Of a DNA stretch of 64,000 nucleotides, positions 1,282 through 22,655 are shown one piece after another. The DNA is from an uncultured Phycisphaerales bacterium (lineage in GTDB: Bacteria > Planctomycetota > Phycisphaerae > Tepidisphaerales > Tepidisphaeraceae). The notes under the pieces were generated by a model. That model was not told the DNA's origin. It saw only the letters and a list, made by a program, of their open reading frames with translations, and did no database searches. Each line of letters starts with the position of its first letter. The stretch's first letter is position 1. The stretch spans positions 3,776,001-3,840,000 of the forward strand of contig CAVWVQ010000003.1 in NCBI GenBank assembly GCA_963758525.1, given 5' to 3'. A program made the position numbers and the translations under genes.

Positions 1282-2427
1282 TCATCCCCGGATAATCTGC
1301 GCCATCGCATCCGCGAGCTTTTCCGGCGTGCAGGAAAGAATGTCCATCCCGACTTTTCGGCACTTGGAGGCGGTGGTCTTGTTGTATTCGGGACGAGCGG
1401 AGTAGCCGAGCGCGCCGAGGCCGATCATTCGAACGCCCGACTGGGCCATGTCGCGCACCTGGCTGACCAGATCGCGCTCCGAGCGCCCTTCGTAGAAATC
1501 GGTGATCAAAACGACGATCGTCCGGCCGGGCTGCGCGACCAGTTGATTCGCGTAATGGAGTGCTTTGGCGATATCCGTCCCGCCGCCGAGTTGGATCGAG
1601 AGCAGCACATCGACGGGCTGGCCGACCTTGTCGCTGAGATCGGCGATGTCGGTGTCGAAGAGGAACAGGCTCGTGCGCACCGACGGAAGCTCAGCGAAGA
1701 TGGACGCCATGACGGCAGAGAAAATCGCCGAGTCGAGCATCGAGCCGGATTGATCGACGGCGACGATGATGTGCCAGGGCCGGCTCCTGCGCTCGGCGGC
1801 ATGGAAGTAGAGGCGGTTGACCAGCAGCTTGGCGGACTCGGCATCATAGTTGTGCAGATTGCGGCGAATCGTCCGGCCCAGATCGAGGTTGCGATACACC
1901 CGCCGGGGCGAATGCTTGTCGCGCCGGATCGCGCCCGTGATGGCCGGCTCAATCTGCACTTTCAGCTTCTGCTTCAACTCCTGCACGACCTTGTCGATGA
2001 TCTTGCGCGCCAGGGAGCGCGTCTGCTCGTTGAGCAGATCGCGATGCGTCAGCAGTGTCTTGACCAATTCCTGGTTCGGCTCGATCCGCTCCAGCAATTC
2101 GGGCTTCTGCATCAGCTCGCGCAGGCCTTTGCGATTGACCAGCTCGCGCTCCATCACCTCTTTGGCTTCGCGGGGAAACAGCTCGCCAACCTCGTCCACC
2201 CAGCGCGGGACGTTCATCGCGTGGCCCGGGCCGGAGCCGCCGGTTCTGTCCCCGTGCTTCGGCTTCGCGCCGGCAGAGTCTTCGAAGAGGAAGCCGACGA
2301 GCGCTTCGATCCGCGCGGCTTGTTCGTCGTCGCCGGCGATCGAGACCCCGTGCTGGTCCGCGGCCTTCCCCAGGACCAGCCGCCAGCGGGTCAGCGTTTT
2401 GCGTTGTTGTTGAGTGAGATCTGCCAT
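1282..2427 (-). CDS. VWA domain protein (YehP/CoxE-like)
   Basis: RWRLVLG N-terminus; MIDAS motif VDQSGSM; GGGTDIAKAL; ITDFYEG. Confidence 0.9.
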   Translation of the reverse strand: MADLTQQQRKTLTRWRLVLGKAADQHGVSIAGDDEQAARIEALVGFLFEDSAGAKPKHGDRTGGSGPGHAMNVPRWVDEVGELFPREAKEVMERELVNRKGLRELMQKPELLERIEPNQELVKTLLTHRDLLNEQTRSLARKIIDKVVQELKQKLKVQIEPAITGAIRRDKHSPRRVYRNLDLGRTIRRNLHNYDAESAKLLVNRLYFHAAERRSRPWHIIVAVDQSGSMLDSAIFSAVMASIFAELPSVRTSLFLFDTDIADLSDKVGQPVDVLLSIQLGGGTDIAKALHYANQLVAQPGRTIVVLITDFYEGRSERDLVSQVRDMAQSGVRMIGLGALGYSARPEYNKTTASKCRKVGMDILSCTPEKLADAMAQIIRG

Positions 2428-2439
2428 GGTGGGACCGAA

Positions 2440-4956
2440 TCAATTTTTGTCGCTGATCCATTTCTCCAGGATCGCCGCGACCTCGGTATCGAGTTGAGCC
2501 ATCAACCGGGCGGCGCCCACGCTGATCGTGAGGGTGCGGAGCGATTCACTTTCCTTCAGACCATACAGTTCCGCCACGTGCGACGCGACGCCGTCGCGCT
2601 GGCGCTCGTGCAGCGTCTCAAACGCCGCGCGGAGGCGCGGCACCATGTTGAGAAACGTTTCTCCGTCCGCGTTTTGCAGCAGTTCGTCGATCGCGGCAAC
2701 GAGCGCCGTCGCCCCCAGCAGGATCGCGGTCTTGGAGACGCGGAGCACGCCGTGCAGGAAATCGCCCGCGACCACCTGCTGATCGATGCCGCCCCGCGCG
2801 TACGCGCTCAGTTCCGCGGCGAGCGCCTCGGGCTTCATTCGCCGCATCTCTGTCAGAACGCCGAGAAACGCGCCGCGCAGGAATGGCATCGTCGAGTCCT
2901 TCGCGGCCCGATCGACGTGCGCTGCAAACAGGTCGGCATCCAGGTCCTGGCGTTGGACCACGGGCTCGGCCAGCGCCAACAGCCCGTGAATGACGTTGTC
3001 CCATTCCTCGGGCGGCACCGACGCGACTTGCGAGACCGCAAAGCACGCCCGATCGAAGCAGCGCGCGATCAGATCCGCGAGCCGTTGCTTTCCCATCCCG
3101 CGAAGCGCCGCATACCGCTCCAGCAGCATCAGCGACGTGAGCGCGTCAGTGAGCGAATGGAATCGATCATCATGGTCGATGGCATGCCCGGTGGCTTGCT
3201 CGGCCTGCGCGACAAGCGTCGGAAGATCCATGTCGATTGCCTGCACGAGCCGCCGGCATGCGGGGCCGGCTTCGAAGCTGTTTGCGCCGAGGCCTTCCCG
3301 CAGCAGCGTCATCGCCGCGACTTCCACGGTGTCGCCATGCAGGCTGCGCTCGATGAGCGACGCTCCGATCTTCGGACTCCACCGCAATTTCCAATGCTCC
3401 TTGAAGATCGACTGCCCGAAGGGGGACGTTTCGCGCTGCAGCGTGCCGATCTCGACGCCCAAAAAAATCAGGCGATGGAGGAATGCGGAGCGCGCCGCAT
3501 CGTTTGGCTGTCGCTTGTCGAGCGCATAAGTCTGCACTTTCTCGCGGGCGGCGACTTCCTCCAGATCGAGCCTGGCGAGTTGTTCGTAGAAGTCGTTGAT
3601 GATCGGAAGTCGGCCGATCCGGTCCGTCACCCGGCCGAGGCGCGTGCCGATGTTCACTTCGTCGATGGCATCCAGCAGGTTGCCCGCGTCGGTCTTCGGA
3701 TTTCCCTTGCAGCAGCAGGTGATCAGGGCATCGTGGATGTCATCCAGCACCGGGTGCTGCCGCCCGCGCAGGCGGGCGAGCATGAGCGCGTTCTGCGTCG
3801 CGGAGATGGCATCGGCTGAAGAGAAGAGCTCGCCGCGCCGGCGCGACTCCTTCAGGCAATCGATGACGTAATCGATCACCACCTGATCCTGCCCGATCCC
3901 TGCCGAATGGCTCTCGTAACACATCTCGTAAAAACGGGGCGCGCGGTTCCCGGCCCCATAGCCCGACAGCTCCGAAATCCGGAAGTATGAGTACGGCGCG
4001 ACGGTCACGCTCAGCGTTCCCTGCGGGATCGGCGGCGGAGGCTGGGGATCATTCCGATCGAGAAAAATGTGAAAGCCGCCGCAAACAACCATCGCCTCGG
4101 AAGGTTGAATGTTCAGATTGTCGAGCGTCTGGCGGATGGTTTTCCACATGAACCGCTCGCGGGCGAGAGTACCGTCGAACTGCAACGAGTCCGCCGGCGT
4201 GGTGGCGCGAACCGCCGCGCAGAACAGCGCAACATCGCGGCGCATGGTTTCGTAAGACTCGTCGGGCCGCGGGGTTTCAAAGAGTCTGTCCCATGTCTCG
4301 TTCCAGCTTCGATAGCCGGCGGTTTTCGCAAGCACCTGGTAGAACGTGCTGCGCGGGGCGATTTCATCGAGATCGCGCCGCTGCGCCGGCTGCGGTTGAT
4401 CGACGCCAGGGGAGGGCGGTCTTCCGATCGCATAATGGGGCAGGTCCATGAAAACGCTTTGGGCGCCGATCTCCCTGGCCGTGAGCATCGCGACGTATTC
4501 GGGCGAGTAGCTGACCAGCGGATACCAGACCGAATAGCGGGGGACCGGGATCGATGGACCCGCAACTGGTGCGCTTGCGGCGGTGTCGTCGCGGAAGCTG
4601 GAATAAATTGCCACCGGCGGGCGAGTCTTGGAATCGATGAGAAACTCGATCATCTCCTGCGCTTCGTGCGGCCCTTCGATGAACACGATCCGCGGCTTGC
4701 GCTGGCGGATCGCCTGGGCAATGTGCCGGGCGATGGCGGGGGAGTGATGCCGGACCGGAAACCAATAGAGCGGCTCGTTGAGAATCGTGTCCACGCTCGC
4801 GACCAGCGCGTCGACATCGAGTATCGCAGCGCGGGCGGCGTCAAGAACCTCGGAGGCAACTTCCGGGTTTGCGGGTGGCGCACCCATTTCCTCTCCCGGT
4901 ATGCCGCGGGAGGGCTGGGGTGGGGGCGTTTTCTGCTGTTGAAAAAGCTTGCTCAT
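2440..4956 (-). CDS. YehM-like / DUF5682 family protein
   Basis: PVRHHSP, FIEGP, RERFM, VVCGGFH, SGYGAGNRAP motifs; sits between AAA and VWA genes. Confidence 0.85.
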   Translation of the reverse strand: MSKLFQQQKTPPPQPSRGIPGEEMGAPPANPEVASEVLDAARAAILDVDALVASVDTILNEPLYWFPVRHHSPAIARHIAQAIRQRKPRIVFIEGPHEAQEMIEFLIDSKTRPPVAIYSSFRDDTAASAPVAGPSIPVPRYSVWYPLVSYSPEYVAMLTAREIGAQSVFMDLPHYAIGRPPSPGVDQPQPAQRRDLDEIAPRSTFYQVLAKTAGYRSWNETWDRLFETPRPDESYETMRRDVALFCAAVRATTPADSLQFDGTLARERFMWKTIRQTLDNLNIQPSEAMVVCGGFHIFLDRNDPQPPPPIPQGTLSVTVAPYSYFRISELSGYGAGNRAPRFYEMCYESHSAGIGQDQVVIDYVIDCLKESRRRGELFSSADAISATQNALMLARLRGRQHPVLDDIHDALITCCCKGNPKTDAGNLLDAIDEVNIGTRLGRVTDRIGRLPIINDFYEQLARLDLEEVAAREKVQTYALDKRQPNDAARSAFLHRLIFLGVEIGTLQRETSPFGQSIFKEHWKLRWSPKIGASLIERSLHGDTVEVAAMTLLREGLGANSFEAGPACRRLVQAIDMDLPTLVAQAEQATGHAIDHDDRFHSLTDALTSLMLLERYAALRGMGKQRLADLIARCFDRACFAVSQVASVPPEEWDNVIHGLLALAEPVVQRQDLDADLFAAHVDRAAKDSTMPFLRGAFLGVLTEMRRMKPEALAAELSAYARGGIDQQVVAGDFLHGVLRVSKTAILLGATALVAAIDELLQNADGETFLNMVPRLRAAFETLHERQRDGVASHVAELYGLKESESLRTLTISVGAARLMAQLDTEVAAILEKWISDKN

Positions 4957-4968
4957 TTCATAAGAGGA

Positions 4969-5008
4969 CCCTCACTCCACCCTCTCCCGGTACTCCGGGA
5001 GAGGGTGG
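4969..5008. repeat. REP-like hairpin, CCCTC-x-CCCGG...GAGGG family (relatives at 30651-30688 and 41124-41163)
   Basis: Perfect stem ccaccctctcccgg-tact-ccgggagagggtgg. Confidence 0.8.
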
Positions 5009-5015
5009 AATGATT

Positions 5016-6182
5016 TCACTTCAGGGACTTTTGTGCCTCGTCGTGGAATGACTGCCAGTGTTTATCCGACATCCCGCGTTTCCTGGCGACGATCGCAACA
5101 TATTCCTTGAGCGCGGCCAGATCCTGCGGGTCTTCCTTCACGATCGATCCGATCAGATTTCGCGCGATCGATCCTCCCGAGACTTTCCCGTCCCCGAAGA
5201 AACGGCTGTGGAGTGCGGCATCGACGGCGGTGCCGATCGCTTCCGCGGTGGAAAGAGTGGTGCCGGGGGATTTGACGCTGATGCCCTCCGCGGTTTTGCC
5301 GTCGCGCAGCTCGCGGAACGCGGTGGCAAGAAGATCGAGGATCGCCGGCTCGATTGTTGTGGGAATGTCATAACGCGAAAGAAGGTCCGCCGTCCGCTGA
5401 CGCACGATCTCGATTTCCGTCTTCTTGTCGGCGACGATCGGAATGTGGACGTAGTTAAACCGGCGTTTGAGGGCGGCTGAAAGATCATTAACGCCCTGAT
5501 CGCGGGAATTGGCAGTGGCGATGATATTGAAGCCCGGCCTGGCGAAGATGGTATTCGCATCCGGCAGTTCCGGAATTGCGATGTTCTTGTCCGACATGAT
5601 TGAGACAAGGGCGTCCTGCACGTCGGGCACGCAGCGCGTGATTTCCTCAAAGCGAAGCAGCCCGCCGCACCGCATGGCGACCATCGTCGGCGAGGGTATC
5701 AGATTGTTGGGCGTGGGACCTTCGGCGATGACGCGCGCGATATTCCAGGAATACTTGATGTGCTCCTCAGTGGTGCCTGCCGTACCCTGAATAACCAGCG
5801 TGGAGTTGCCGGCTATCGCGGCGGCGAGATGTTCGCTGAGCCAGCTTTTGCCGGTGCCGGGGTCGCCCACCAGCAGGAGCGAGCGCTCGGAGGCAAGCGT
5901 GACGATCGCCCGCTCGACAATGGCGGTATCACCATAGAATTTGCGCGTGATATCGACTTTCTTCTTCTTGCCGTCGATCGTCGCTTCCAGCGTCTTGCCG
6001 CCGAGGATGTAGGCCAAAACGGAACGTGGCGCAAGTTTCCAGGATGACGGAGGCTTGTCCCCCTCGTTTTGACGCAGCGCCTCGAGCTCATCGGCATAAG
6101 TGACTTCCGCCGGCAAGCGCAGCACATCGCTCTCCGCGGCGTGATGTTCCTTTTCCAAAGTCGGCTCCGTTTTCTTCGCCAT
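5016..6182 (-). CDS. MoxR-related AAA+ ATPase (YehL-like, AAA_5)
   Basis: Walker A GDPGTGKS, Walker B LRFEEITR, ATANSRD, LSAALKRRF. Confidence 0.92.
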   Translation of the reverse strand: MAKKTEPTLEKEHHAAESDVLRLPAEVTYADELEALRQNEGDKPPSSWKLAPRSVLAYILGGKTLEATIDGKKKKVDITRKFYGDTAIVERAIVTLASERSLLLVGDPGTGKSWLSEHLAAAIAGNSTLVIQGTAGTTEEHIKYSWNIARVIAEGPTPNNLIPSPTMVAMRCGGLLRFEEITRCVPDVQDALVSIMSDKNIAIPELPDANTIFARPGFNIIATANSRDQGVNDLSAALKRRFNYVHIPIVADKKTEIEIVRQRTADLLSRYDIPTTIEPAILDLLATAFRELRDGKTAEGISVKSPGTTLSTAEAIGTAVDAALHSRFFGDGKVSGGSIARNLIGSIVKEDPQDLAALKEYVAIVARKRGMSDKHWQSFHDEAQKSLK

Positions 6183-6202
6183 ATATCACTCCCATTCCTT
6201 AC

Positions 6203-6249
6203 CCTTCGTGCCTCCGTGCCTCCGTGCCTTCGTGCTTTCGTGCCTTCCC
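6203..6249. repeat. Tandem octamer CCTYCGTG x5 plus partial
   Basis: ccttcgtg cctccgtg cctccgtg ccttcgtg ctttcgtg ccttccc. Confidence 0.9.
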
Positions 6250-6251
6250 GG

Positions 6252-7361
6252 CTAAGTAAACTTCATCGCCTTTACCAGCTCCGCCTGACTGATTTTGTCG
6301 GCTGAGACGGTCAGATACTCCGGCCCGTCTTTGCCAAGCGCCGTCAGCGGCTGCAATAGCAGCTTGCAGGATTCGTAGTGTACGACGCCGTAGATCGGCG
6401 GCCTCTTCTTTTGTGCCGCCAGCTTTCCCATCACGGCATGCAACGGCGTGCCCGACGGACCGCGATCGAGCCGCGCCTCGAATTGCAAGGTTTGCGTGCT
6501 GAGTGGCAGGAGGTCGTAGCCTTCCTCTGAAGATGTTCGCTCGCCCGCCTGCCATTGGTCGACGAAGACTTCCTCCTGCAATTCGATCTCCAGATCCAGC
6601 GGCGTCGGGCGATGCTGCTCCAGCCGCGCCGACGCCGCCCGTGGATCCCAGTGCCACAGCGATTGCCAGTCCGTGAACGCGCTTGCCGTCTTCATCTCGC
6701 TGGCATCACCGAGGATCAGGCGAGTGACGCCGGGGGGCTGACGATGAATCGAACAGCGGCTGATTTCCACCGCTTTCTTCTCGAGCAGAAGCGATGGCTT
6801 GAATTTCTGCTTCTGCGGCAAATGCAAAAACGCCTCGGCGGGTAATTCGAGATCCTTTCGCATCGGAAAGACACAAGACCAGATGATCGCCTCGCCGGCT
6901 TCCACGGGCGCCGACGCTTCGATCGCGCGGAGACGGAAATCAAAGCTCGCAAACGCCCCCGGCACCACGCGCTTGGCAACGCCAAGCGTAACAACCTTCA
7001 GGCTCTGCACCGGCTGCGTCGGCGGAGTCGACATGAGAGCATCGAACGCGGCATTGTCGTTTGAATCGATCGCGCGGCGCATGCTCGTCGCCAGCAGCCA
7101 TGCTCGGCCGAGAAGAAACGCGAGGCGCCGCGAAGAGAATTGGGCCGATCCGGCGGTAAACCGCGAAATCTCCTCGTTGGCGATGCGAAGCGTCGAGCCC
7201 AGCCGGAGCAGACGCATGCGCGACGCCTCCTTGAAGCTCACGTCGATACGCTCGACCGTGGATTTGGAAGCCGCCGTGAGCCCGGCCAGCAGCAACTCCT
7301 CGACCGTGCCGCACAGTTCATCGAGAAGGGAGATGAGTTGTTTCTGTTCGGCTTGCTGCAT
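6252..7361 (-). CDS. Hypothetical protein resembling the YehQ core without a SWIM finger
   Basis: 369-aa ORF; helical N-terminus LLDEL..TVEELLLAGL...RLLRLG, then LKVVTLGV; directly upstream of the yehL-like gene. Confidence 0.6.
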   Translation of the reverse strand: MQQAEQKQLISLLDELCGTVEELLLAGLTAASKSTVERIDVSFKEASRMRLLRLGSTLRIANEEISRFTAGSAQFSSRRLAFLLGRAWLLATSMRRAIDSNDNAAFDALMSTPPTQPVQSLKVVTLGVAKRVVPGAFASFDFRLRAIEASAPVEAGEAIIWSCVFPMRKDLELPAEAFLHLPQKQKFKPSLLLEKKAVEISRCSIHRQPPGVTRLILGDASEMKTASAFTDWQSLWHWDPRAASARLEQHRPTPLDLEIELQEEVFVDQWQAGERTSSEEGYDLLPLSTQTLQFEARLDRGPSGTPLHAVMGKLAAQKKRPPIYGVVHYESCKLLLQPLTALGKDGPEYLTVSADKISQAELVKAMKFT

Positions 7362-7390
7362 GTGTCCGCGATCCGTCAGAGTGTGAGTCT

Positions 7391-7457
7391 GGGGCGGGAT
7401 TCATCCCGCCGCATTCTCTGCTTCCCAAGACAATTGGCGGGATAAATCCCGCCCTAC
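7391..7457. repeat. REP-like inverted pair
   Basis: ggggcgggattcatcccgcc ... ggcgggataaatcccgccctac. Confidence 0.8.
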
Positions 7458-7814
7458 TCATCTTCAGTTGATTCGGGACTTTCTTCCCGATCGAGCAGTG
7501 CCACGGTCGTCTTGAGATGGGTGCCAACGACTCTCAGCGTGAGAAGTCGTTCCAGAAGGCGCACGGAAATCTGTGCTTCCAGCAGTTTGCGCGCGGACGC
7601 CCGTTCGTCCTTCTCGATTTGTGAATGCAGGGCCGACAGAATCGACGCCACATGTCCCGCGCCGGCTTGTTCCAGATATTCGGTAAATGACTGCAATTGC
7701 GACAGTTCATCCGGCCCGCAGGCGCAGGCCGCGAACGACAAGTGTTTCCAGCAGCGATCGCAGTCGTTCGATGCCGACGCGGAGTTCATCGAATTCGGAT
7801 GCACCAGTCACCAT
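7454..7814 (-). CDS. Small helical hypothetical protein, frameshifted near 7730
   Basis: ATG 7814 gives MVTGASEFDELRVGIERLRSLLETLVVRGLR, continuing in another frame as ACGPDELSQLQSFTEYL...EDE*; restoring 2 bp (GC) joins them. Confidence 0.7.
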
Positions 7815-7815
7815 G

Positions 7816-8709
7816 CTAATCGATGGAGCGGGAGTCGCCGCCGGCCCCAACCCCGCCAGTTGCCGGAACGGATTGGATGATCACGTATTGTTTTCGGAAC
7901 TCCACTCCGGCGTGCTCCCATGACTCGACGTATTTGCGCAGGGCGGATTTGCCCTCCTCAAATTCGGCGCCGTTGATTCGGCAATCCGCCTGGGCCGCGC
8001 CATCCTGGTTGCGCATGGCGAAAAGCCGAATGGCGCAAAAATGATCTGATTCCAGTAGCGATTTGAAAGCCTCGATTGATCGGGTCAGCAGACAACAGGG
8101 GCAAAATTGATGTTTGTCCCCGCCGCCGGCAGTTGGCTGGTCGGATGCATTGGGGTGTTGTTGATAGTGTGCCACGGGTCCCAGCACCACTCGACGGTGC
8201 CGCGCGGGCGTCGCGTCCTTCGGTGGAAATGACATCGAGAGAAGCGTCAACTGCTGAGGCTTCTCCCGGAGCGCTTCGACAAAAACAATATAATCAACCT
8301 GCGCCCACTGATCGAACCCCTTGGCGATCGAATCTTCCGCGCTGTCGCCCGTCGAATGTTGAAATTCAAATATCGGCTGAGGAATCAGCGTCGGATGGCT
8401 GATGTGAATCGTCGTGGTGGTCCTGGCTCCGCCAGCGTCCAGCGGCTGAAATCCTTCAACTTTTGGCCGGATGACGAAGCTGCGATCCTCGTCTTCAATG
8501 CGATCCTGGTGGCAAGTCACACGATACCCGCGCTGCCGAAGTACGCGGGCCGCGACCTCGAAGAGATTGAATTGCTCGTTCCAGGTCTCTGTTCCTCGGG
8601 CGTATGCGATCTTGACGTCTCCGGGAGATTTGGTGGTCGCAGCCGGAGCTGCAACCTGCTGTTGCGGTCCAGGTATCGGCCGGGCAGTTTTTTTGAACCA
8701 TCCAAACAT
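7816..8709 (-). CDS. DUF6348-like protein
   Basis: Likely start MFGWFKK; FEFQHSTG, FCPCCLLT, ADCRING, EFRKQYV motifs. Confidence 0.7.
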   Translation of the reverse strand: MFGWFKKTARPIPGPQQQVAAPAATTKSPGDVKIAYARGTETWNEQFNLFEVAARVLRQRGYRVTCHQDRIEDEDRSFVIRPKVEGFQPLDAGGARTTTTIHISHPTLIPQPIFEFQHSTGDSAEDSIAKGFDQWAQVDYIVFVEALREKPQQLTLLSMSFPPKDATPARHRRVVLGPVAHYQQHPNASDQPTAGGGDKHQFCPCCLLTRSIEAFKSLLESDHFCAIRLFAMRNQDGAAQADCRINGAEFEEGKSALRKYVESWEHAGVEFRKQYVIIQSVPATGGVGAGGDSRSID

Positions 8710-8744
8710 ACAGATCCCGGGCGCGGCGACCGCGTTTGTGACCC

Positions 8745-10856
8745 CTAGACCGCGTAATAATCTTCCGGCACGGTTTCGGTCGGCCGCCAATCCACTTCGC
8801 CGGCCTCGGCTCCCTTGTAGCGAATGAAGATCTCGCCCATCGTCTCCTTGTTCAACTCCGGCTTGGCGTCGTGCGTCCTGGCGATCCATCTGTCGATGGT
8901 CGAGGGATCGAGTTCCCCCGCCTTCACCAGGCCGATGATGAGCACCAGCAGATGTTTGCAGATCGAGCCGCGCAGACCGCCGCAGATGTTGAGGTTCTGG
9001 GTGCAGCAGGCGTATCCGCCGCCCGACTCGATCCGACAGGCGTAAACCAGATCAGCGTCCGTCTGGCTCTTGACCACGCCATTGAGATGCGTTTCGGTGA
9101 CGTCGTTGAAGAGTTGGAATCGCTCGGCCTTGAGCATTTTCGTTGCTTTATCGATTTTCGCCTTGTCTGCGCGAAGCTCGAGCGCTTTGAGGAATGTTGC
9201 GATGTCGGTGACTTGGCCGATCTCTTTGGCAATCTGCTTTGCGATGATTCTCTTGGCGGTCGCCTGCTGTTGTTCCGCGAGCTTTTTGACCTTCTCGCGT
9301 CGCTCGCGATCGATGGCTTTCTGCTCCTGCAGTTGCTCTCGGCGCGCTTTCGCTGCCGCCGCAAGTTCCTTCTCACCCGGAAGGGGCTGCGCGAAAGCCT
9401 CGGAAATTCCTTTCAGGACGAGCTCGCGAAGTTCCTTTCCGGCCTTGGGCGATTTGCTGGTTTCGATGTCCAGTGTTTCGAAACGAACCTGGCGATTCGT
9501 CAGCATATTGGCCAGAAGCAGCATCGAAGCGGAAAAGGTCGTGCTCGTCTGCCGCGCGAGTCGCCCGGCCAGGAGCGTTTGGGGAATCCGCAGCGCCCAG
9601 CCGTACTTCAATCGTGCGGTGTCGAGTCCGACTTCCTCCCCTTCGTCCGCTGCGTCCGTTCGAACGCGAAACGTCAGGCATATCCGCCGTGCCTGTTGTG
9701 CCAATGCGTCCAATTCCTTGAGGGCGGGACCAACCGCTCCCGCGGGAGCTGCGGCAGGATTGTAGTTTGTTGCGTTCTTCAGGTTGACGCCGTGAAGCTT
9801 CGCGCCTCTGAGGTTGCACTCCGTCAAGTCCGCGGCGTCGAAGCGGGAGTTGGTCAGGTCCGTGTCCGCGAAGTTGGCGCGCACGCAACTTGCGCCGCTA
9901 AAGTTGGAATCCGGCATGCCGCAGCCGACGAACGTGACTCTGTCCAGATTGGCATTGCGGAAGCTTGCCGCGGTGAACGTGCATAAGTTGAACACGCTGT
10001 CGGAGAGGTTGGCGCCATCGAAGTCTGGGGATTTCAGCGACAGGTTCAGAAACTTCGCCAGCCGCACGGAGGTTCCCGCAAAGACACAGCCGGTTGTGTG
10101 CAGTTCCTGAGCGGCCGTCAGGCCGTACATGGATCGCGTCAACGAGGCCTTATGGAGCATCGCGCCAGTGAAGTCTGCAGACGTCAGGCTTCCCTGAAAT
10201 CGGGCGCCTTCCAGGTCTGTCTTGTGAAATCGGCTGCCCTGCACGTCCACAAACGCCGCGCCCACCGCGTCGGCTCTGCTGAAATCGCAATTCCTGGCAG
10301 AAGCGAAGCTGGCGTTGCCCAGCTTAGAGCGGGCAAAGCTGCATTGCTCAAAGCCGATGGAGCCGAAGTCGAATCCCGGCAGTTCCAAATTGTCGAAGTT
10401 CTCGCCGGCAAACGTGAAAAGCGGCGCAAAGGTTTGATGGGGATAACGCAACTGTCGAGCGTCAGCCCCAACGGCTTTCTTGAACAGATCGGCGTTCGCT
10501 TTTCCGCCGCGAATGAGCAAAAGCGCCTCCTCTTCGGTTGGCACAACCATTTTCTCAAATGCATCGGCGTCGATTGTCTGTATCCCCGCGCCGTTCGCGT
10601 TTAGCGATAGCGCGAGCTTCTGGATGGTTTTCCCTCCGCTTAAATCCCTCAAAACCAGAAAATCCGCCGACTCGTCGAGTTCCTCAACAACAACCCCTTG
10701 CTGCGCGTCGACCATCCCTGTCAGTCGTTCCTTCACTCCATGATCGAACTTCCCGTTGAAGAACACCTTCTTCCCAAGCAGACGCGTCAGCACCGGCGGG
10801 AGGGCTTGCTCCTTCGGTGCGGGATTTGGATTCGCTGCCTTCTTCATTTTCCCCAC
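8745..10856 (-). CDS. BRCT-like + pentapeptide-repeat + coiled-coil + SWIM zinc-finger protein
   Basis: LLGKKVFFNGKF...GVVVEELDESADFLVL (BRCT-like); many A(D/N)F/L pentapeptides; C-terminal CCTQNLNICGGLRGSICKHLL. Confidence 0.8.
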   Translation of the reverse strand: MGKMKKAANPNPAPKEQALPPVLTRLLGKKVFFNGKFDHGVKERLTGMVDAQQGVVVEELDESADFLVLRDLSGGKTIQKLALSLNANGAGIQTIDADAFEKMVVPTEEEALLLIRGGKANADLFKKAVGADARQLRYPHQTFAPLFTFAGENFDNLELPGFDFGSIGFEQCSFARSKLGNASFASARNCDFSRADAVGAAFVDVQGSRFHKTDLEGARFQGSLTSADFTGAMLHKASLTRSMYGLTAAQELHTTGCVFAGTSVRLAKFLNLSLKSPDFDGANLSDSVFNLCTFTAASFRNANLDRVTFVGCGMPDSNFSGASCVRANFADTDLTNSRFDAADLTECNLRGAKLHGVNLKNATNYNPAAAPAGAVGPALKELDALAQQARRICLTFRVRTDAADEGEEVGLDTARLKYGWALRIPQTLLAGRLARQTSTTFSASMLLLANMLTNRQVRFETLDIETSKSPKAGKELRELVLKGISEAFAQPLPGEKELAAAAKARREQLQEQKAIDRERREKVKKLAEQQQATAKRIIAKQIAKEIGQVTDIATFLKALELRADKAKIDKATKMLKAERFQLFNDVTETHLNGVVKSQTDADLVYACRIESGGGYACCTQNLNICGGLRGSICKHLLVLIIGLVKAGELDPSTIDRWIARTHDAKPELNKETMGEIFIRYKGAEAGEVDWRPTETVPEDYYAV

Positions 10857-10859
10857 ATT

Positions 10860-12332
10860 TCACCCCTTGGCCGGCGCCCAGCCTTTGACGATGTTCTCAG
10901 CCTTCATCCCTATGAGCAAAGCCTCAATCTGCTCGCGCGAATTGCTCACGCGAATATCCCGGTCGATCGGTGTCGCGCGATTGGGACTGAAATCGGTGAA
11001 ATACGCGACATATGCCGGGAAATTGCCGCCTTCGGATTCCTTGTTGGTTTTCCAGAGCAGCAGCTTGCGGACCATCAGGTTGCCCTTGATGGTTTTCGTG
11101 AAGACCTCGCGCTGGAGCATCTGGCTTTTGGGAAGCGAAAGCTGCCGGGCGTCGCGATCGATCATCGCGACTTCGGTGATCTCGTGCACCTGATGCAGGC
11201 GAAGGTCCTGATGGCGAATCGTCTTGTCCTCGCGACGACGCACGAAGTTGGGCGAGATCGGGCTGGCCAGCGGAAGCCGCCGGATGGACTGATACATGTT
11301 GCGCGGCATGTCGTAGCCGAGCACCATCCGGTCGATGCTTCCGCCGCGCGTGGTCTGGCTGATCAGATCGAGGCAGGAGATTTCGATCACCCATTCGGGA
11401 CGGACCATCTGGTAAGCGACCGACTCGTTCACCTCGGCGTAGTCACTGTGGGCGGCCATGTCTTTGAGATCGCTGAGCCAGGCGCGCCGCTCGTCTTCGC
11501 TGATCCCGCCGCCGACGCGGCCCAGGATGTGGAAGCTGCTGTCCTGCCGCATCAGTCCGACGAGCATGTCGTGAATCATTCCCACGCGATCGTCCACGCC
11601 TTCGGTAAATCCCAGCACGGCCACGTCGAGCGAGATGCGCGGCTTGATCTTGAACAACCCGCCGCTGTCGGAGCGAACGACCAGACCCTCGCCGCCTTCC
11701 TCATCAACCCACTTGGCGAAACGTTGCATCACGTCGTCGACCGTTTTGGCCCTCGCGGTTTCCACGGGGTGGATCTTCTTGCCCGACTTGAAAGTTGCTT
11801 CGATTTTTTTGTGGACTTCGGCATATGCCGTCGGAGCGGATTTGTCGTCGATTTCATGAATGTCGAAGACGGCAAACTGCAGCAGGTCAAGCTCGGCTTG
11901 CGATTCGGGTTGGCGGGCGACGCGGGAAACATCGTGCACGCGCGGGCGGCGATCCGTCCGGGCAACGTATAACTCGCCGGCCAGGATCATCTTTTTGTGC
12001 TTTGTTTTGCCGAGCAGGGCGACCGCTTCCTGCATGAACGGCAATCCCGTCCGCACGACCCCGCCGGGATTGACCGAGCAGCAGTGGTCGCCGTCGATGA
12101 CCAGCAGCGTGAATTCCCCATCGACCTTTCGGCTGACAAAATAGTCGCAGGCGGGCAACTTCTCCTTCGCCGACGCCCGATCCAGCGCCATCATCTGTGC
12201 CGCCAGCTTGCGGCGGCATTCCTGGGCCTTGAGCGGGATAAACGGATCGGCCATGCATTGCGCTTTGCCGACGCCGTAGGTGCCAAAGAGCATCTGCAGG
12301 CGCGAGGTGTCGAGGAGCGTGTTGGTCGCCAT
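10860..12332 (-). CDS. ATP-dependent polynucleotide (DNA) ligase with OB fold and WGR-like C-terminal domain
   Basis: Motifs I RKVDG, III GELY, IIIa FAVFDI, IV EGLVVR, V FKIKP; OB-fold VGGGIS, VRPEWVIEI, PNFVRRREDK; tail ends ENIVKGW. Confidence 0.85.
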   Translation of the reverse strand: MATNTLLDTSRLQMLFGTYGVGKAQCMADPFIPLKAQECRRKLAAQMMALDRASAKEKLPACDYFVSRKVDGEFTLLVIDGDHCCSVNPGGVVRTGLPFMQEAVALLGKTKHKKMILAGELYVARTDRRPRVHDVSRVARQPESQAELDLLQFAVFDIHEIDDKSAPTAYAEVHKKIEATFKSGKKIHPVETARAKTVDDVMQRFAKWVDEEGGEGLVVRSDSGGLFKIKPRISLDVAVLGFTEGVDDRVGMIHDMLVGLMRQDSSFHILGRVGGGISEDERRAWLSDLKDMAAHSDYAEVNESVAYQMVRPEWVIEISCLDLISQTTRGGSIDRMVLGYDMPRNMYQSIRRLPLASPISPNFVRRREDKTIRHQDLRLHQVHEITEVAMIDRDARQLSLPKSQMLQREVFTKTIKGNLMVRKLLLWKTNKESEGGNFPAYVAYFTDFSPNRATPIDRDIRVSNSREQIEALLIGMKAENIVKGWAPAKG

Positions 12333-12335
12333 TGG

Positions 12336-13055
12336 TTACTCGCTGGTTTGCGGCCGCGCCTCGGCGGCCTTGAGTTCCATGTTGGAGAGGTGGAGGATCA
12401 GGCAATAGTTTTCCGCCTGCGTGCGTCCCTCCAGGAATCCGCGAAACTGCTGCCCGCCGCGAGTGAGGATCAGCGGATGATTCCCCTTGGGCCCGGCGCC
12501 GATAGCCATGAGGCTGTCGGTTTGCTCCAGTTCCCTGGCCATTGCGAAGAGGAAGTCGTAGGTGAGTCCGTTGACGTGAACGATCTGCCGTTTTCCCGCG
12601 AAGACAAACTTGTTGTAAACGTCCTTCTTCTTCATCAGTTTGCCGGACCACTTCAGCGGCGTTTCCCCGGCGCAGTTGGCCTGGGCGACCTTCCGCGGAC
12701 GCCGTTCGCGCTCGGTGCCGTCCGGATTCCGAATCACCTCAAATTGCTTCACCTTGTGAACGATCTTCCCGTCGGCGTCGATGAAGACCCGGCTGGTCTC
12801 CCTCAGCGTTGATCCAAAAGTTTCGATGTCGACATCCGGATCGCCGTCGATCAGAAGCTGTGCGATTTTGTCTCGCCCGCCGGCTTTCGCTTCGAGTGCC
12901 GCCAGATCATGCGCCGCATGCGCTTTCATCAGCCGGCACGACTGAATCTGCCGCCCCTGCTCGTCGAGCCAGCGCACCTTCGCCGGCTTCAAAACGCTCT
13001 GCGCACCCACCACCGCATCGCGTCCTTTGCTGTTGGCTATATTAATCGTTCCCAT
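12336..13055 (-). CDS. Hypothetical protein, possible divergent Ku-like
   Basis: 239-aa ORF tightly linked to the ligase; YDFLFAMARELEQTDSL helix followed by beta strands. The CDS is solid; the Ku call is tentative. Confidence 0.6.
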   Translation of the reverse strand: MGTINIANSKGRDAVVGAQSVLKPAKVRWLDEQGRQIQSCRLMKAHAAHDLAALEAKAGGRDKIAQLLIDGDPDVDIETFGSTLRETSRVFIDADGKIVHKVKQFEVIRNPDGTERERRPRKVAQANCAGETPLKWSGKLMKKKDVYNKFVFAGKRQIVHVNGLTYDFLFAMARELEQTDSLMAIGAGPKGNHPLILTRGGQQFRGFLEGRTQAENYCLILHLSNMELKAAEARPQTSE

Positions 13056-13070
13056 GTCCGCTCGCTCTTG

Positions 13071-13100
13071 CCTTCGTGCCTCCGTGCCTCCGTGCCTTCC
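13071..13100. repeat. Tandem octamer CCTYCGTG x3 plus partial
   Basis: Same unit as at 6203-6249. Confidence 0.85.
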
Positions 13101-13103
13101 CCC

Positions 13104-13718
13104 CTACATCATCCCGAAATCCATCGCCTCTTCATCCTCCGCTGTCGTGTCTTCGTCGCCGCTGATGGCGGCGCTTTGGTCGAAGCCAACGAACTCGAGT
13201 TTCGTGGGCGATCCCACCGCGAGAAACGGCGTTCCATCCGCGGCGAGCAGGAGAAAGCCGGTGTCGGCCTCCAGGCCGCCGCGGAACGAATAGGGGAACT
13301 GATAAATCGTCCCTTTTTTCAGTTCTGCCAGAAGCCCGCCGAAGTCTGCTTCGCAACTGATCTGATAGACCGACCGTATGTCGTGACTGAGATACTCTTC
13401 GATCGTCGCGGTCTTTTCCACCACGACTGGCGCGGCGTAAGAGGAACTGACCGGCACGATGCGGCTTCCCTGATTGTCAGTGGGAATCAGCGTCTTCTTT
13501 TCAACCCAATGCCCTTCGGGCGAGAGGGTGACCAGCGCCGTCCCGCCCGAAAAGATGACGCTCTTGCCGTCGTCGGCCAACGTCGCCAAGGTGCATTTGC
13601 GGCCCTTCTCGTCGAGCGTTTCGATCTCGACAGAGCCGTACAAGTCGGATCGCTCGACTCGGTTCAACGCAAACGGCAACTCAACTCCCCCGAAAGCCAA
13701 TATGAGCGGCTTAGCCAT
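13104..13718 (-). CDS. Hypothetical protein, possible divergent Ku-like with acidic tail
   Basis: ILAFGGVELPFAL resembles the Ku N-terminal ISFGLVNIPVKL pattern; DIRSVYQI; LLAELKKG..YSFRGG; tail EDEEAMDFGMM. Confidence 0.65.
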   Translation of the reverse strand: MAKPLILAFGGVELPFALNRVERSDLYGSVEIETLDEKGRKCTLATLADDGKSVIFSGGTALVTLSPEGHWVEKKTLIPTDNQGSRIVPVSSSYAAPVVVEKTATIEEYLSHDIRSVYQISCEADFGGLLAELKKGTIYQFPYSFRGGLEADTGFLLLAADGTPFLAVGSPTKLEFVGFDQSAAISGDEDTTAEDEEAMDFGMM

Positions 13719-13883
13719 GATTCATAGATTGAAGCGATCAAGCGGGACGGAGTCAACGGTTCCCAAGTTCATCTCTTCACATGCAGCATGATCGGCTGTT
13801 GATCGCGCCAGATCGAAAGATCGCAGGAGGCCCCGTTCCGCGGCCGATTGTACCAGCAGCTCGTTTGCAGTTATGGCAGGCTG

Positions 13884-15359
13884 CTACGCCATCAGCGGCC
13901 TAACGACGTTCCCATGAACGTCGGTCAGACGGAAGTCACGGCCCTGAAACTTGAACGTCAGGCGTTCGTGGTTGATCCCGAGGCAGGCCAGCAGAGTGGC
14001 ATTGAAGTCGTAGACCTCGACGGGATCTTTGACGATGTTGTAGCAGTAGTCGTCGGTCTGGCCGTAGGTGAAGCCGCTCTTGAGCCCGCCGCCGGCCGCC
14101 CACATCGTGAAGCAACGACCGTGATGATCGCGGCCGTAATTGTCCTTGGACAGCGATCCCTGACTATAGATGGTCCGCCCGAACTCGCCGCCCCAGACGA
14201 CGAGCGTGTCGTCCAGCAGGCCGCGTTGTTTGAGGTCTTTGACCAGGGCGGCGGTGGGCAGGTCGACATCCTTGCATTGTCCGCGGATCTGGCTGGGCAG
14301 ATTGCTGTGCTGGTCCCAGCCGCGATGCATCAGTTGCACGAATCGCACGCCGCGCTCGGCCATCCGCCGGGCGAGCAGGCAGTTTCTCGCGTATCCGCCA
14401 TCGACGGCGTTGTTGCCGGTTTCGTCCAGTCCGTATGCTTCCAGCGTGGCCTTGGATTCCTGCGAGAGGTCCGTCAGATCCGGCACGCTGCTCTGCATCC
14501 GATAGGCCATCTCATATTGCGCGATTCGCGTGCTGATCTCGGGATCTCCAAAGGCGTTGGCAGCGATGTGATTCAGCTTCGCCTCGGCGTCCAGCATGGT
14601 CCGCCGGTCTGTCTTGGAGACGCCGGGAGGGTCGGAGAGATAGAGGACGGGGTCCCCGCCGGAGCGAAGCCGCACGCCCTGATACTGACTCGGCAGAAAA
14701 CCTGATCCCCACAATCTCGAGAAGATTGGCTGGTCGGTCTTGTTGCCGCTCCCCTGGCTGATGAGAACGACGAAGCCCGGCAGATTTTGATTCTCGCTCC
14801 CCAGGCCGTAGCTGAGCCACGCCCCCATGCTTGGGCGGCCCGGCTGCTGCGAGCCGGTCTGGAGAAAGGTGATGGCCGGGTCGTGATTGATGGCTTCAGT
14901 GTTCAAACTTTTCACCAGGCAGATGTCGTCGACGATCGACGCGGTATGCGGAAGCAATTCGCTGAGCCAGGTGCCGCTCTGACCATGTTGTTTGAACTTG
15001 AATATTGGCGCGGCACACGGAAAAGACGCCTGCCCGCTGGACATTCCGGTGAGGCGCTGGCCCCCGCGAATTCTGGCCGGGAGTTCGGTGCCGTTGAGCT
15101 TTTGCAGGCTCGGCTTGTAGTCGAACAGATCGATGTGAGACGGCCCGCCGCTCATCACCATGTAAATGACGCGCTTGGCCGTCGGCGCAAAGTGCGGAGC
15201 GGCGAACGTTCCGCCCGCGCCGGTTGGCTGGAGATTCTGCGCGCCGAAGAGCTCGGGATTGAGGAGCGAGGCCAGGGCGGCGGCGCCGATACCGGTCGCC
15301 GTGCGGCCGAAAAGTTGCCGGCGTGTCAGAAGCAATTGATGTTGTCGTTGAAGGTCCAT
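13884..15359 (-). CDS. DUF1501 domain protein
   Basis: TRRQLF leader; [33 protein letters not shown]. Confidence 0.92.
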
Positions 15360-20249: not shown

Positions 20250-21269
20250 CTAAAGGTCAGTCCTCACTCGCAGATAACTCGGAAACCGCGGGACGCCGCC
20301 TTCGGATAGTTCCTGGTAGCGAAAAGCAATCGTCGAGCCGATGGCAGGGGGGCTTTCCCGTTCCTTGTCGCTGAAGCCCGTTCCCACGGCGAACTCGGTG
20401 CCGTCCGGCAAGCGCACCAGCAGCGCGCCCAAACGTCCTTTATGCCTGCCCGCCCCGGCCTGATGCCCGGTCACGAGCGCATCGGCATCCTTGAAGCTCT
20501 TCACCTTCAGCAGCGTGGATGAACGACCGGCTTGATATGTCGAGGCGGGCTGACGCAGCATGAGACCTTCGCCTCCCAGGGATTCAACACGCGTCAATTC
20601 CTGCCGCAGGCTCGCGATGTCGCGGCACAACTGATGCGGATGCAACCCGGCAAACTTGCAGCTTCGGTCCGCAAACATCCGTTTCAGAAATTCCATGCGC
20701 GCTTCAAAGCCGCCAGCGACGGCGGGGGCGTCAAACACGAGATAGCGAACTTCCTTCCAGAGGTCGCTTTTGTCCTGCCGACGAACGATGCTGACGGTGC
20801 GCTGGAATTTTTTGCGATCGATCCAGAGTTCGCCATCAAGAGGGGTCTTCCCAAGGCCGGCCACGAACCAGTCCGGCGCGTGGTAGACGTTTCCCTGGCG
20901 GGAAAGAAACTGCTTGCCGTCCCAGTAGGCGCGCACTCCATCGAGCTTCTCGCTCATCCACCAGCCGGAAAGGTCGGCGGCGTTGTCCCAGCTTTCTGCC
21001 AGCAGAAGCGGGGGGCCGGCGCCCGCTTCACTGCCATCGGCGGAAGCTTTCACCGGTCGTTGCGGCAGCACGCCGCCAATGCGCGTGGTTTCGGCTGCAT
21101 CGCCACGAAGTTTGCGGAGGTGCTTGCAGGTTCTGCGTTCGATCGCAATCGATTGATTGCGCCACGCCGGACACGAGCATGAGAATACGCCGCCGGTGTT
21201 TTTGAGGACGTATGGCTTGGCGCCCGATCCTTGCATTTCGAATGTCTCGCCATCGTTGAGGTCGGCCAT
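20250..21269 (-). CDS. SWIM zinc finger fused to minimal ATP-dependent DNA ligase
   Basis: CSCPAW...TCKH; SEKLDGVRAYW, EGLMLR, LLKVK, VGTGFSD, PRFPSY. Confidence 0.92.
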   Translation of the reverse strand: MADLNDGETFEMQGSGAKPYVLKNTGGVFSCSCPAWRNQSIAIERRTCKHLRKLRGDAAETTRIGGVLPQRPVKASADGSEAGAGPPLLLAESWDNAADLSGWWMSEKLDGVRAYWDGKQFLSRQGNVYHAPDWFVAGLGKTPLDGELWIDRKKFQRTVSIVRRQDKSDLWKEVRYLVFDAPAVAGGFEARMEFLKRMFADRSCKFAGLHPHQLCRDIASLRQELTRVESLGGEGLMLRQPASTYQAGRSSTLLKVKSFKDADALVTGHQAGAGRHKGRLGALLVRLPDGTEFAVGTGFSDKERESPPAIGSTIAFRYQELSEGGVPRFPSYLRVRTDL

Positions 21270-21455: not shown

Positions 21456-22655
21456 ATGAAGAAATGGGACAGGCAGACAATTCTTGCTGAACTTCTGCGG
21501 CGCCATCAGCGCGGCAAGGACCTCTCACAGACCGGCATTCGCGACGATCCGATTTTCTCCGCCTGCTTCCGTCATTTCGGGTCATATCGCAAGGCCGTCG
21601 AACTTGCCGGCATCGACTACGAAACGGTGTGGCGACGTCGCATCACCAAGTGGAACTGCGAGTCGATTAAACGAGAATTGAAGCAGCGAAAGCGGCGCGG
21701 CGAGGACCTCTGGTCGCGCGGTCTGCGGGTGACCGAGGCGCCGCTGCACTCCGCCGCGGTTCACTGGTTCGGATCCTATCGAGCCGCTGTCGAAGCGGCC
21801 GGGATCGACTATGGCAAGGTCTGCCACTGCGTCCCCAACACCTGGACCTGCGAAACGGTTGTCGCCGAAATCAAGCGTCTGCATCGAAAGGGCCGTCCCA
21901 TCCATCATGCCCGCCTCGAGCGGGCGGAGCCGCGGTTGGTGGTGGCGATGTACCGGTGCTTCGGCTCGTTCCGCAAAGCGATTGAGGCGGCGGGGATCGA
22001 CTACTCAAAAGTGATGGTTCGCCCGGCGCGCACCTGGTTTAAGCCGCGCGTCATTCGGGAAATGCGGCAGCTTCACCGGCAAAAAAAGGGGATGTGGAAT
22101 CGAGCGCTGCGGCGCAATTCGCCCTATCTTTTACGCGCTGCCAAGCAATTGTTCGGCAGTGTGCCGCGCGCTCTCAAGGCCGCGGGCGTGCCTCTTTCGG
22201 CAACGATTGCCCCAAAGCGCCAGCGGCGGCCCCTGCTCGAAAAATCCGCCATTCTCGCGCGAATTCGCGTGCTGGACGGCGCCGGCGCCGATCTGCGCGC
22301 CGTCGCCCTGATCCGCTCCGAGCGTCATCTCTATCAATCTCTTTTGCGCCGTTTCGGCAGCCACAAGTCGGCTCTCCTTGCCGCCGGAGCCCTCTACCCG
22401 CCGAAGCGTCCGCTTCGCCATTGGACCTGGCCGATCGTGCTCAAGGAACTCCGCGCGGCGCATCGGGAAGGCAAGGATCTACGTCATTCATCAATGCAGA
22501 AATCCCGCCGCCCGCTGTTCGACGCCGCGAAATATTACTTCGGCTCGTATGTCAACGCCGTCGCGGAAGCCGGCATTGATTACGACAAGATGGTCCAAAA
22601 GCAGTTGAAAGTTCGCCGCAAGACGGCATTGCCGCGGGCTGGAACCGCGCGATAG
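21456..22655 (+). CDS. Basic protein of six ~65-aa repeats (homing-endonuclease-associated repeat-like)
   Basis: Six copies of W..I..E...H..G.DL...FGS(Y/F)..A..AAGIDY; no catalytic domain visible. Confidence 0.8.
   Translation: MKKWDRQTILAELLRRHQRGKDLSQTGIRDDPIFSACFRHFGSYRKAVELAGIDYETVWRRRITKWNCESIKRELKQRKRRGEDLWSRGLRVTEAPLHSAAVHWFGSYRAAVEAAGIDYGKVCHCVPNTWTCETVVAEIKRLHRKGRPIHHARLERAEPRLVVAMYRCFGSFRKAIEAAGIDYSKVMVRPARTWFKPRVIREMRQLHRQKKGMWNRALRRNSPYLLRAAKQLFGSVPRALKAAGVPLSATIAPKRQRRPLLEKSAILARIRVLDGAGADLRAVALIRSERHLYQSLLRRFGSHKSALLAAGALYPPKRPLRHWTWPIVLKELRAAHREGKDLRHSSMQKSRRPLFDAAKYYFGSYVNAVAEAGIDYDKMVQKQLKVRRKTALPRAGTAR

Follow-up and report, generated by a model that had tools for sequence, protein, structure and literature searches.

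Three closely spaced genes lie on the minus strand of the window, by which we mean the whole 64,000-nucleotide stretch of DNA that was analysed. They encode two small proteins, referred to here as A and B, and a DNA ligase, and they are separated by gaps of 48 nt and 3 nt. The genes and features discussed below are as follows.

13104..13718, minus strand: Ku-like subunit A (P0001), 204 aa
13107..13181, minus strand: acidic C-terminal tail of A, ending M-D-F-G-M-M (pLDDT <50 at residues 184-204)
12336..13055, minus strand: Ku-like subunit B (P0002), 239 aa
10860..12332, minus strand: dedicated ATP-dependent DNA ligase, 490 aa (PF01068, E value of 2e-8; PF04679, E value of 4e-6)
10863..11141, minus strand: conserved C-terminal domain of the ligase, ~90 aa, ending K-G-W, tentatively WGR-like (from the alignment)
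8745..10856, minus strand: gene with a weak BRCT match, pentapeptide repeats, and a C-terminal Cys/His motif (Pfam), after a 3-nt gap

An earlier note on this DNA, made from the sequence alone, had described A and B as remotely Ku-like proteins encoded directly before a ligase. The gene order is as described there, with the 490-aa ATP-dependent ligase starting 3 nt after B, and all of the motifs quoted in that note are present in the two proteins. A search for a sigma-70 promoter or a terminator in positions 13600-14000 gave no match. The gap between A and B holds a short tandem repeat with an 8-nt unit (13075-13096) that is shared with a second gap of the gene run (6207-6228, minus strand); a 14-mer was matched 4 times versus 0.03 times expected.

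At an E value of ≤0.001, database searches returned 580 homologues of A and 2,870 of B (90% clustering), and the B profile found 615 clusters at 50%. A and B are each single copy in the host genome. Among named records, those of Tepidisphaeraceae and Humisphaera come nearest, with 77 to 78% identity, and the host is on this basis probably a planctomycete.

Fold of the two small proteins

The profile search against the Ku family (PF02735) that the earlier note had proposed gave no match for either protein. None of 55 A members and none of 49 B members match at an E value of ≤1, and the same search of the host genome found only two other genes, neither of them A nor B. Likewise, no match to A or B was found in Pfam, NCBIfam, PHROG, PADLOC, or the sequences of the PDB. 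Aligned with hhalign to 32 canonical Ku proteins of the host phylum, A and B scored no better than block-shuffled controls, with 36/40 and 10/40 shuffles reaching the canonical-Ku profile scores. The ESM Atlas returned nothing usable for A and, for B, only unnamed clusters and one lead below 0.9.

The fold was revealed by structure only. AlphaFold2 models were built on alignments of 55 (A) and 49 (B) sequences. The A model (pLDDT 80.4) consists of a hairpin (E5-9/E12-21), an insertion, a strand at 112-122 (DIRSVYQI), a helix at 127-134 (LLAELKK), and three strands, which bears out the strand and helix order from which the earlier note had read a Ku core layout. Bacterial Ku tops the list for A in a Foldseek search against the PDB (E value of 4.4e-5). 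In VIA, a structure search of 48,161 chains that is independent of Foldseek, the Ku proteins of M. tuberculosis and B. subtilis rank first (Z of 10.8 and 10.6), with 159 to 160 residues aligned at an rmsd of 5.6 to 5.7. Residues 1-174 of A are collinear with residues 2-174 of M. tuberculosis Ku in VIA, and the 160 residues aligned to Ku include the bridge, versus ~100 residues aligned to SPOC domains. In a viral library, the sole two matches to A under an E value of 0.001 are phage Ku proteins.

The B model has a lower pLDDT of 68.6, and its bridge is of low confidence when B is modelled alone. It runs from a strand (E2-20) through an insertion to a second strand (E150-160), a helix (H163-178), and strands up to residue 227. 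This is the element order of A, which agrees with the suggestion that the 239-aa protein ends like the 204-aa one. Bacterial Ku is again on top in Foldseek (E value of 5.2e-5, ~230 columns), and the top four rows in VIA are Ku (Z of 9.9 to 10.2, 105 to 122 residues aligned), including B. subtilis Ku (Z of 10.2, rmsd of 2.9, 105 residues aligned). The Z of the B barrel is tied within 1 with that of the PHF3 SPOC domain (9.5). B has an insertion of more than 100 residues at the bridge position, and its longer bridge carries a helical insertion (residues ~45-86) with an invariant D72-P73.

In structure alignments, identity between A or B and bacterial Ku ranges from 8 to 13%. Among the matches listed by Foldseek for the two proteins, all are Ku-containing entries, with alignments of ~220 to 245 columns, TM-scores of only 0.36 to 0.49, and large rmsd values. 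Unrelated folds in the VIA lists begin at a Z of ~4. We conclude that A and B are almost certainly homologous to Ku in fold and that their Ku likeness is detectable by structure, not by sequence. The remote likeness first noticed by eye therefore stands, since Ku tops both structure searches, yet no sequence match to PF02735 exists; lack of a Ku barrel had been named as grounds for rejecting it, and the models of both proteins show the barrel and the bridge insertion.

The structure alignments stop at Ku residue 174, which corresponds to A174 and B230, and the cores of A and B start at residues 1-3. The C-terminal sling helix-turn-helix of Ku (M. tuberculosis residues 167-227) is absent from both. 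A is thus predicted from its model to be a Ku core of barrel and bridge (residues 1-174) without the sling, and B is likewise predicted to be a Ku barrel and bridge without it. Mycobacterial Ku dimerizes via the bridge (residues 23-91), the pillar, and the sling (residues 167-227), according to the available text of its structural description (PMC12784962).

The two families differ in charge. The median net charge is −17 for the A family and +2 for the B family, compared to −6 for canonical Ku. Conserved basic columns occur in the bridges of both subunits (20, 23, 52, and 74 in A), and most of the conserved basic columns are held by B, in which they are 28, 41, 44, 89, and 116-119. After the core, A runs into a low-confidence acidic tail that ends in hydrophobic-D-F-x-M-hydrophobic, and its last 25 residues are 36% acidic. 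The strict end pattern [DNS]-F-x-(x)-hydrophobic is matched by 86 of 104 complete A ends, some of them from near-duplicate loci, and the remaining 18 look like close variants on inspection by eye. The Phe-tipped tail is reminiscent of the C-terminal tip of SSB, and its tip is a putative protein-docking site. In a weak search, no fused or extended version of A turned up among 7,994 candidates of 428 to 2,000 aa. B ends a median of 11 residues past its last conserved motif, and Lys-rich B tails of at least 40 residues are found in 9 of 93 sequences. Tails of this kind are described for Ku proteins as DNA-binding in the accessible part of PMC6379672.

Paralogy and the predicted heterodimer

A and B were compared by hhalign with deepened profiles of 68 and 148 sequences. 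The score was 31.0 (E value of 5e-4) versus a maximum of 24.1 for 40 block-shuffled controls, and the two proteins align collinearly as far as the last strand. A BLASTP comparison of the two found nothing (E value of 0.31). Judged from these profiles, A and B are remote paralogues whose mutual similarity appears to exceed their similarity to canonical Ku. This closeness points to a duplication separate from that of Ku70/Ku80, and A and B presumably arose by duplication within an already divergent Ku lineage.

A model of the complex of B(1-232) with A(1-204) scored 0.71, and the best of its three controls scored 0.00. The pass mark of this test is reached by 116/157 solved complexes and by 2/215 mismatched pairs, counts that are rough with the alignments used here. 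Separate runs share at least 73% of their 350 to 365 contacts, with a partner pLDDT of at least 76. The modelled interface spans both bridges (B 21-44 and 87-113; A 19-87) and the helix and strand after them. The best contact is B-F152/A-I114, and B-Y147/A-L110 is also in contact; both pairs are equivalent positions in the hhalign alignment, as expected for residues that lie on a pseudo-twofold axis. In the model, each C-terminal segment (A 170-183, B 225-231) packs against the barrel of the other subunit and may stand in for part of the sling. Structures of Ku dimers have already been solved, so the A-B score may stem from likeness to them. Mutual information between the subunits over 93 paired loci gave no signal (top z of 5.4 versus 5.1 to 5.3 with shuffled pairing).

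Together with the gene linkage described below, these results support at the level of prediction the heterodimer that the earlier note had imagined, and we consider it likely that A and B form one. The alternative is that A and B form separate homodimers, or that only B binds DNA and the acidic A serves as a regulator or decoy. The opposite charges of A and B and the larger number of database homologues of B (2,870 versus 580) fit this alternative, as does the fact that the complex test can be passed by close cousins of the true partner. The bridges of A and B, however, are of unequal length and fit together in the model with 350 or more contacts, which argues for one complex; an A-A ring, given the median charge of −17, would be very acidic.

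The partner ligase and the linkage of the three genes

The ligase consists of an NTase domain and a PF04679 OB domain, with no POL (polymerase) or PE (phosphoesterase) domain. Motif I (KxDG) is present in 65/65 full-length homologues, and the motifs EG, KxK, and RxRxDK are at least 90% conserved. Its NCBIfam matches are all DNA ligases and fall far below the LigD cutoffs. It also matches the RNA_ligase family PF09414 (E value of 6e-7), and SPOC domains come next after Ku in the fold lists. Both observations would suit an RNA ligase accompanied by Ku-fold proteins that bind structured RNA or serve as a protein adaptor of the SPOC kind. This reading is very improbable: PF04679, an OB domain of DNA ligases, is conserved, as is motif VI (RxDK), NCBIfam assigns only DNA ligases, and SPOC domains are without the bridge.

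The C-terminal domain of the ligase was compared with WGR domains. None of 47 members match Pfam WGR (PF05406), and hhalign against three WGR domains, from the host and one other genome, aligned 24 columns only (E value of 5.5e-4), covering the terminal helix-KG[WY]. A profile of the domain gave only chance matches to PDB sequences. In loci L071-L074 (three copies in genome G162, and genome G289), the ligase ORF of the module is 1,041 to 1,042 aa long and has a C-terminal AAA ATPase (by Pfam on L073). The ligase of L073 is followed by DUF2924 and serine recombinase genes, so this copy may be carried by a mobile element. The ligase set of the host genome is unusually large: L168 and L170 (C3:4823734-4824861 and C3:2751276-2752475) are ligase-like, with an N-terminal WGR domain and KxDG recognized by eye, and a second ATP-dependent DNA ligase of 339 aa (PF01068 and OB_2) lies in the window itself (20250-21269, minus strand). 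The N-terminal Cys/His motif of this second ligase is one that we take to be SWIM-like. Its homologues occur near the module in four loci (L025, L079, L082, and L083), and in L025 the homologue directly follows the module's ligase.

Gene linkage was assessed in 117 loci found via B (28 from GTDB, 9 genome regions, and 80 from metagenomes), which are not independent. A lies directly upstream of B (within 400 nt) in 89 of the 100 loci with at least 500 nt of upstream flank, and the ligase lies directly downstream of B (within 900 nt) in 79 of the 86 loci with at least 900 nt of downstream flank. Among the 11 loci without an adjacent A, two have A at 455 and 1,481 nt, five are metagenome loci in which A is absent nearby, and four are GTDB genomes that each keep one A elsewhere (4/4). 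The two GTDB loci with long flanks and no adjacent ligase have it elsewhere in the genome (2/2); in two further genomes, whose contigs end early, the ligase was found on another contig in one and gave no match in the other.

Across 301 genomes of the host phylum, the A and B profiles hit the same eight genomes with equal copy numbers, including one case of 3:3, and no genome in this sample has A alone or B alone. Distance matrices of A, B, and the ligase correlate with r values of 0.91 to 0.93 (65 triples), values that shared ancestry alone can give. A, B, and the ligase constitute a three-gene module whose members almost always travel together. The strict 1:1 co-occurrence and copy number, and the retention of both A and B after operon breakup, weigh further against separate homodimers or a decoy role for A, a reading that we regard as quite unlikely. 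One of the eight genomes (G125) holds fragmentary remains of A and B (L078, G125:C62:2419-2815) with no adjacent ligase, and the two appear to have decayed together.

Record titles place carriers of the module in the Planctomycetota, Myxococcales, Polyangia, Alphaproteobacteria, Pseudomonadales, Azonexus, Granulosicoccaceae, and Micrococcales. Searches with B of viral contigs, 50,697 phage records, and 72,556 plasmid records gave no match. The flank survey covered 126 loci, of which 53 are at least 10 kb long. No universal flanking gene was found, and most Pfam-positive flankers are unrelated between loci. An AEP primase-polymerase that has a weak AEP-TOTE match and, at its C terminus, a HAD-type DxDG motif occurs near the module in 7/126 loci (L027:8097-9344, L112, L124, L136, L146, L152, and L155); the AEP-HAD protein has no match in the host genome. 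Scattered repair neighbors are an EEP nuclease (two loci), an SbcD-like protein (one), and RuvB (one). A 399-aa protein of HNH_repeat (PF18780) units is encoded at 21456-22655 (plus strand), and the genome has at least two further copies of it.

The gene with BRCT and pentapeptide repeats adjoins the module in 4/126 loci; its BRCT match (E value of 0.06) is below the cutoff, and its C-terminal Cys/His motif is presumably SWIM-like. Downstream of the module, positions 1282-8748 of the window (minus strand) encode DUF6348, proteins of 116 and 369 aa with no assigned function, a MoxR-type AAA ATPase, DUF5682, and VWA_CoxE. In the distant locus L075, a MoxR-DUF5682-vWA cluster related to this one (28 to 47% identity) lies directly upstream of A, an association that is apparently independent of the one in the window. 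Such clusters are near the module in the host, two close relatives, and one distant genome; in the survey of 126 loci, up to 3 have the cluster. Neither this cluster nor the BRCT-pentapeptide gene was retained as a core part of the module, given that they occur in only 1 to 4 of 126 loci. A small Zn-ribbon gene upstream was also rejected as a recurring feature, as it is a single ORF in L083 and is absent from the 165-nt gap in the window.

Rather than mainly repairing the chromosome, the module could work for a mobile element or in a conflict system, with end protection, circularization, or cooperation with the MoxR/vWA cluster as its task. Its patchy occurrence across phyla (8/301 genomes in the host phylum), the three copies in one genome with at least one beside a serine recombinase, and the MoxR-DUF5682-vWA association all lean this way. 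No match to B came from the viral contigs, phage records, or plasmid records searched, however, neither PHROG nor PADLOC has a match for A or B, and most Pfam-positive flankers differ from locus to locus, such that we give this reading only a small chance.

Proposed function and comparison with known systems

In the mechanism that we propose, A and B would assemble 1:1 into a Ku-like ring and thread onto double-stranded DNA ends. The ring would then bring in the neighboring ATP-dependent ligase, perhaps via the A tail, and the recruited ligase would join the ends. DNA binding, recruitment, and joining by the module are inferred from Ku biology as presented in the available text of PMC12784961 and PMC12784962. 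We think it probable that an A-B ring loads on a DNA end and recruits the ligase to seal it. The Lys-rich tails of some B proteins and the AEP-HAD gene near seven loci favor this best reading. Counting against it are the acidity of A (−17), which is unexpected for a DNA ring, the missing sling, the lack of any link to Ku by sequence, the Ku genes already present in the host, and the absence of an AEP-HAD match there.

Canonical Ku was found in 40/301 host-phylum genomes, including none of the seven other carriers among them (0/7), and in 2/15 of the GTDB carriers checked (of 28). The host genome itself carries a second Ku besides a LigD-Ku operon and thus does not depend on the module for ordinary NHEJ. 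No canonical Ku was detectable in 20 of the 23 carriers checked, many of whose genomes are incomplete. Mutual exclusion of the module and canonical Ku was considered and is unsupported (3/23 carriers versus a background of 40/301). Tandem pairs of canonical PF02735 Ku genes occur in 5/301 genomes (G172, G276, G079, G054, and G214), none with the module; they are possibly a Ku3/Ku4-like arrangement in the host phylum.

Alternatively, the same complex could be a Ku-fold heterodimer that serves as a clamp or adaptor and places the ligase on nicks, gaps, or some special lesion rather than on double-strand ends. The loss of the sling and a ligase without POL and PE but with a tentatively WGR-like domain are compatible with such a clamp, WGR domains being found in PARP-type break sensors (PMC7470946, in the part available). 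The presence of Ku-LigD in the host and the scattered repair neighbors (EEP nuclease, SbcD-like, and RuvB) point the same way. A closed Ku ring, on the other hand, needs a free DNA end to load, and the ring-closing bridge is kept in A (160 residues aligned) and interlocks with that of B in the complex model. The 20/23 carriers checked without detectable canonical Ku, many of them incomplete genomes, also speak against the clamp, which we regard as unlikely.

In a broader view, to which we would give somewhat less than even weight, the module would represent a second and cryptic kind of end joining in prokaryotes. It would be built on an obligate sling-less Ku heterodimer that arose by its own duplication, independent of Ku70/80 and Ku3/Ku4. 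The basic subunit would grip DNA, and the acidic one would dock the WGR-bearing ligase via its SSB-like Phe tail. Such a class would be present in several phyla, mostly in genomes scored as lacking Ku, and surveys would undercount NHEJ. Bacterial NHEJ has been reported in ~22% of ~6,000 genomes, defined by Ku sequence profiles (PMC7719229, available text), and a Ku-fold pair hidden from such profiles would be a blind spot of these surveys. If the reading is true, the module offers a minimal Ku without the sling that stabilizes known bacterial Ku dimers, a natural test of why Ku turns heterodimeric and how its subunits specialize, and a function for two large families that lack annotation as well as for a ligase family that is so far an orphan. 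With only three small genes, it should be easy to reconstitute and to compare with Ku-LigD.

The module resembles bacterial Ku and LigD (M. tuberculosis 8v53/9i91, B. subtilis 9vnq) in its predicted barrel-plus-bridge core, in the interlocked bridges of the dimer model, in the ATP-dependent ligase next door, and in the Lys-rich tails of some members. It differs in having two unlike subunits that are invisible to the Ku HMM and lack the sling helix-turn-helix, in the helical insertion of the B bridge, and in the acidic, Phe-tipped tail of A. Unlike LigD, its ligase is without POL and PE domains, and the C-terminal domain of this ligase is tentatively WGR-like. SPOC-type barrels (PHF3, FPA, SPOCD1, MED25 ACID, and INTS13/14) share the same barrel (Z of 7 to 9.5), but only ~100 residues align, they have no bridge, and they are absent among the Foldseek matches listed.

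Ligases with WGR domains are also known among bacteria. According to the available part of PMC7470946, ATP-dependent ligases with WGR, such as those of an NT-OB_2-WGR cluster and the WGR ligase of P. marinus, occur in the Planctomycetia among others, and their function is described there as unknown. These are likewise ATP-dependent ligases with a WGR or WGR-like domain, but theirs have OB_2 (PF14743) or an N-terminal WGR, whereas the module's ligase has PF04679 and a C-terminal domain without a match to Pfam WGR.

The analogy with Ku70/Ku80 that had been drawn from the sequence extends only to the two unlike subunits. Both are heterodimers of diverged Ku cores (by prediction for A and B), but the vWA domain, the helical arm, SAP, and the DNA-PKcs-binding domain are all missing from A and B, which resemble each other more than canonical Ku and show no sign of a special relationship to Ku70/Ku80. 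A description of the A/B family was not found in the literature searched, which excluded most subscription papers and supplements, and the available portions of two sequence-based surveys (PMC7719229 and PMC11936186) and of the ligase review (PMC7470946) show no such family. The closest precedent is in S. meliloti, for which a putative Ku3/Ku4 heterodimer working with LigD4 has been proposed on genetic evidence (PMC6379672, available text). As far as that text describes them, Ku3 and Ku4 resemble A and B in being two co-maintained, usually adjacent genes, with a Lys-rich tail confined to one of the two subunits, but they are recognizable Ku orthologues that work with LigD, and A and B are not PF02735 positive. 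The idea of a bacterial Ku heterodimer is therefore not new, but the A/B family and its ligase seem to be.
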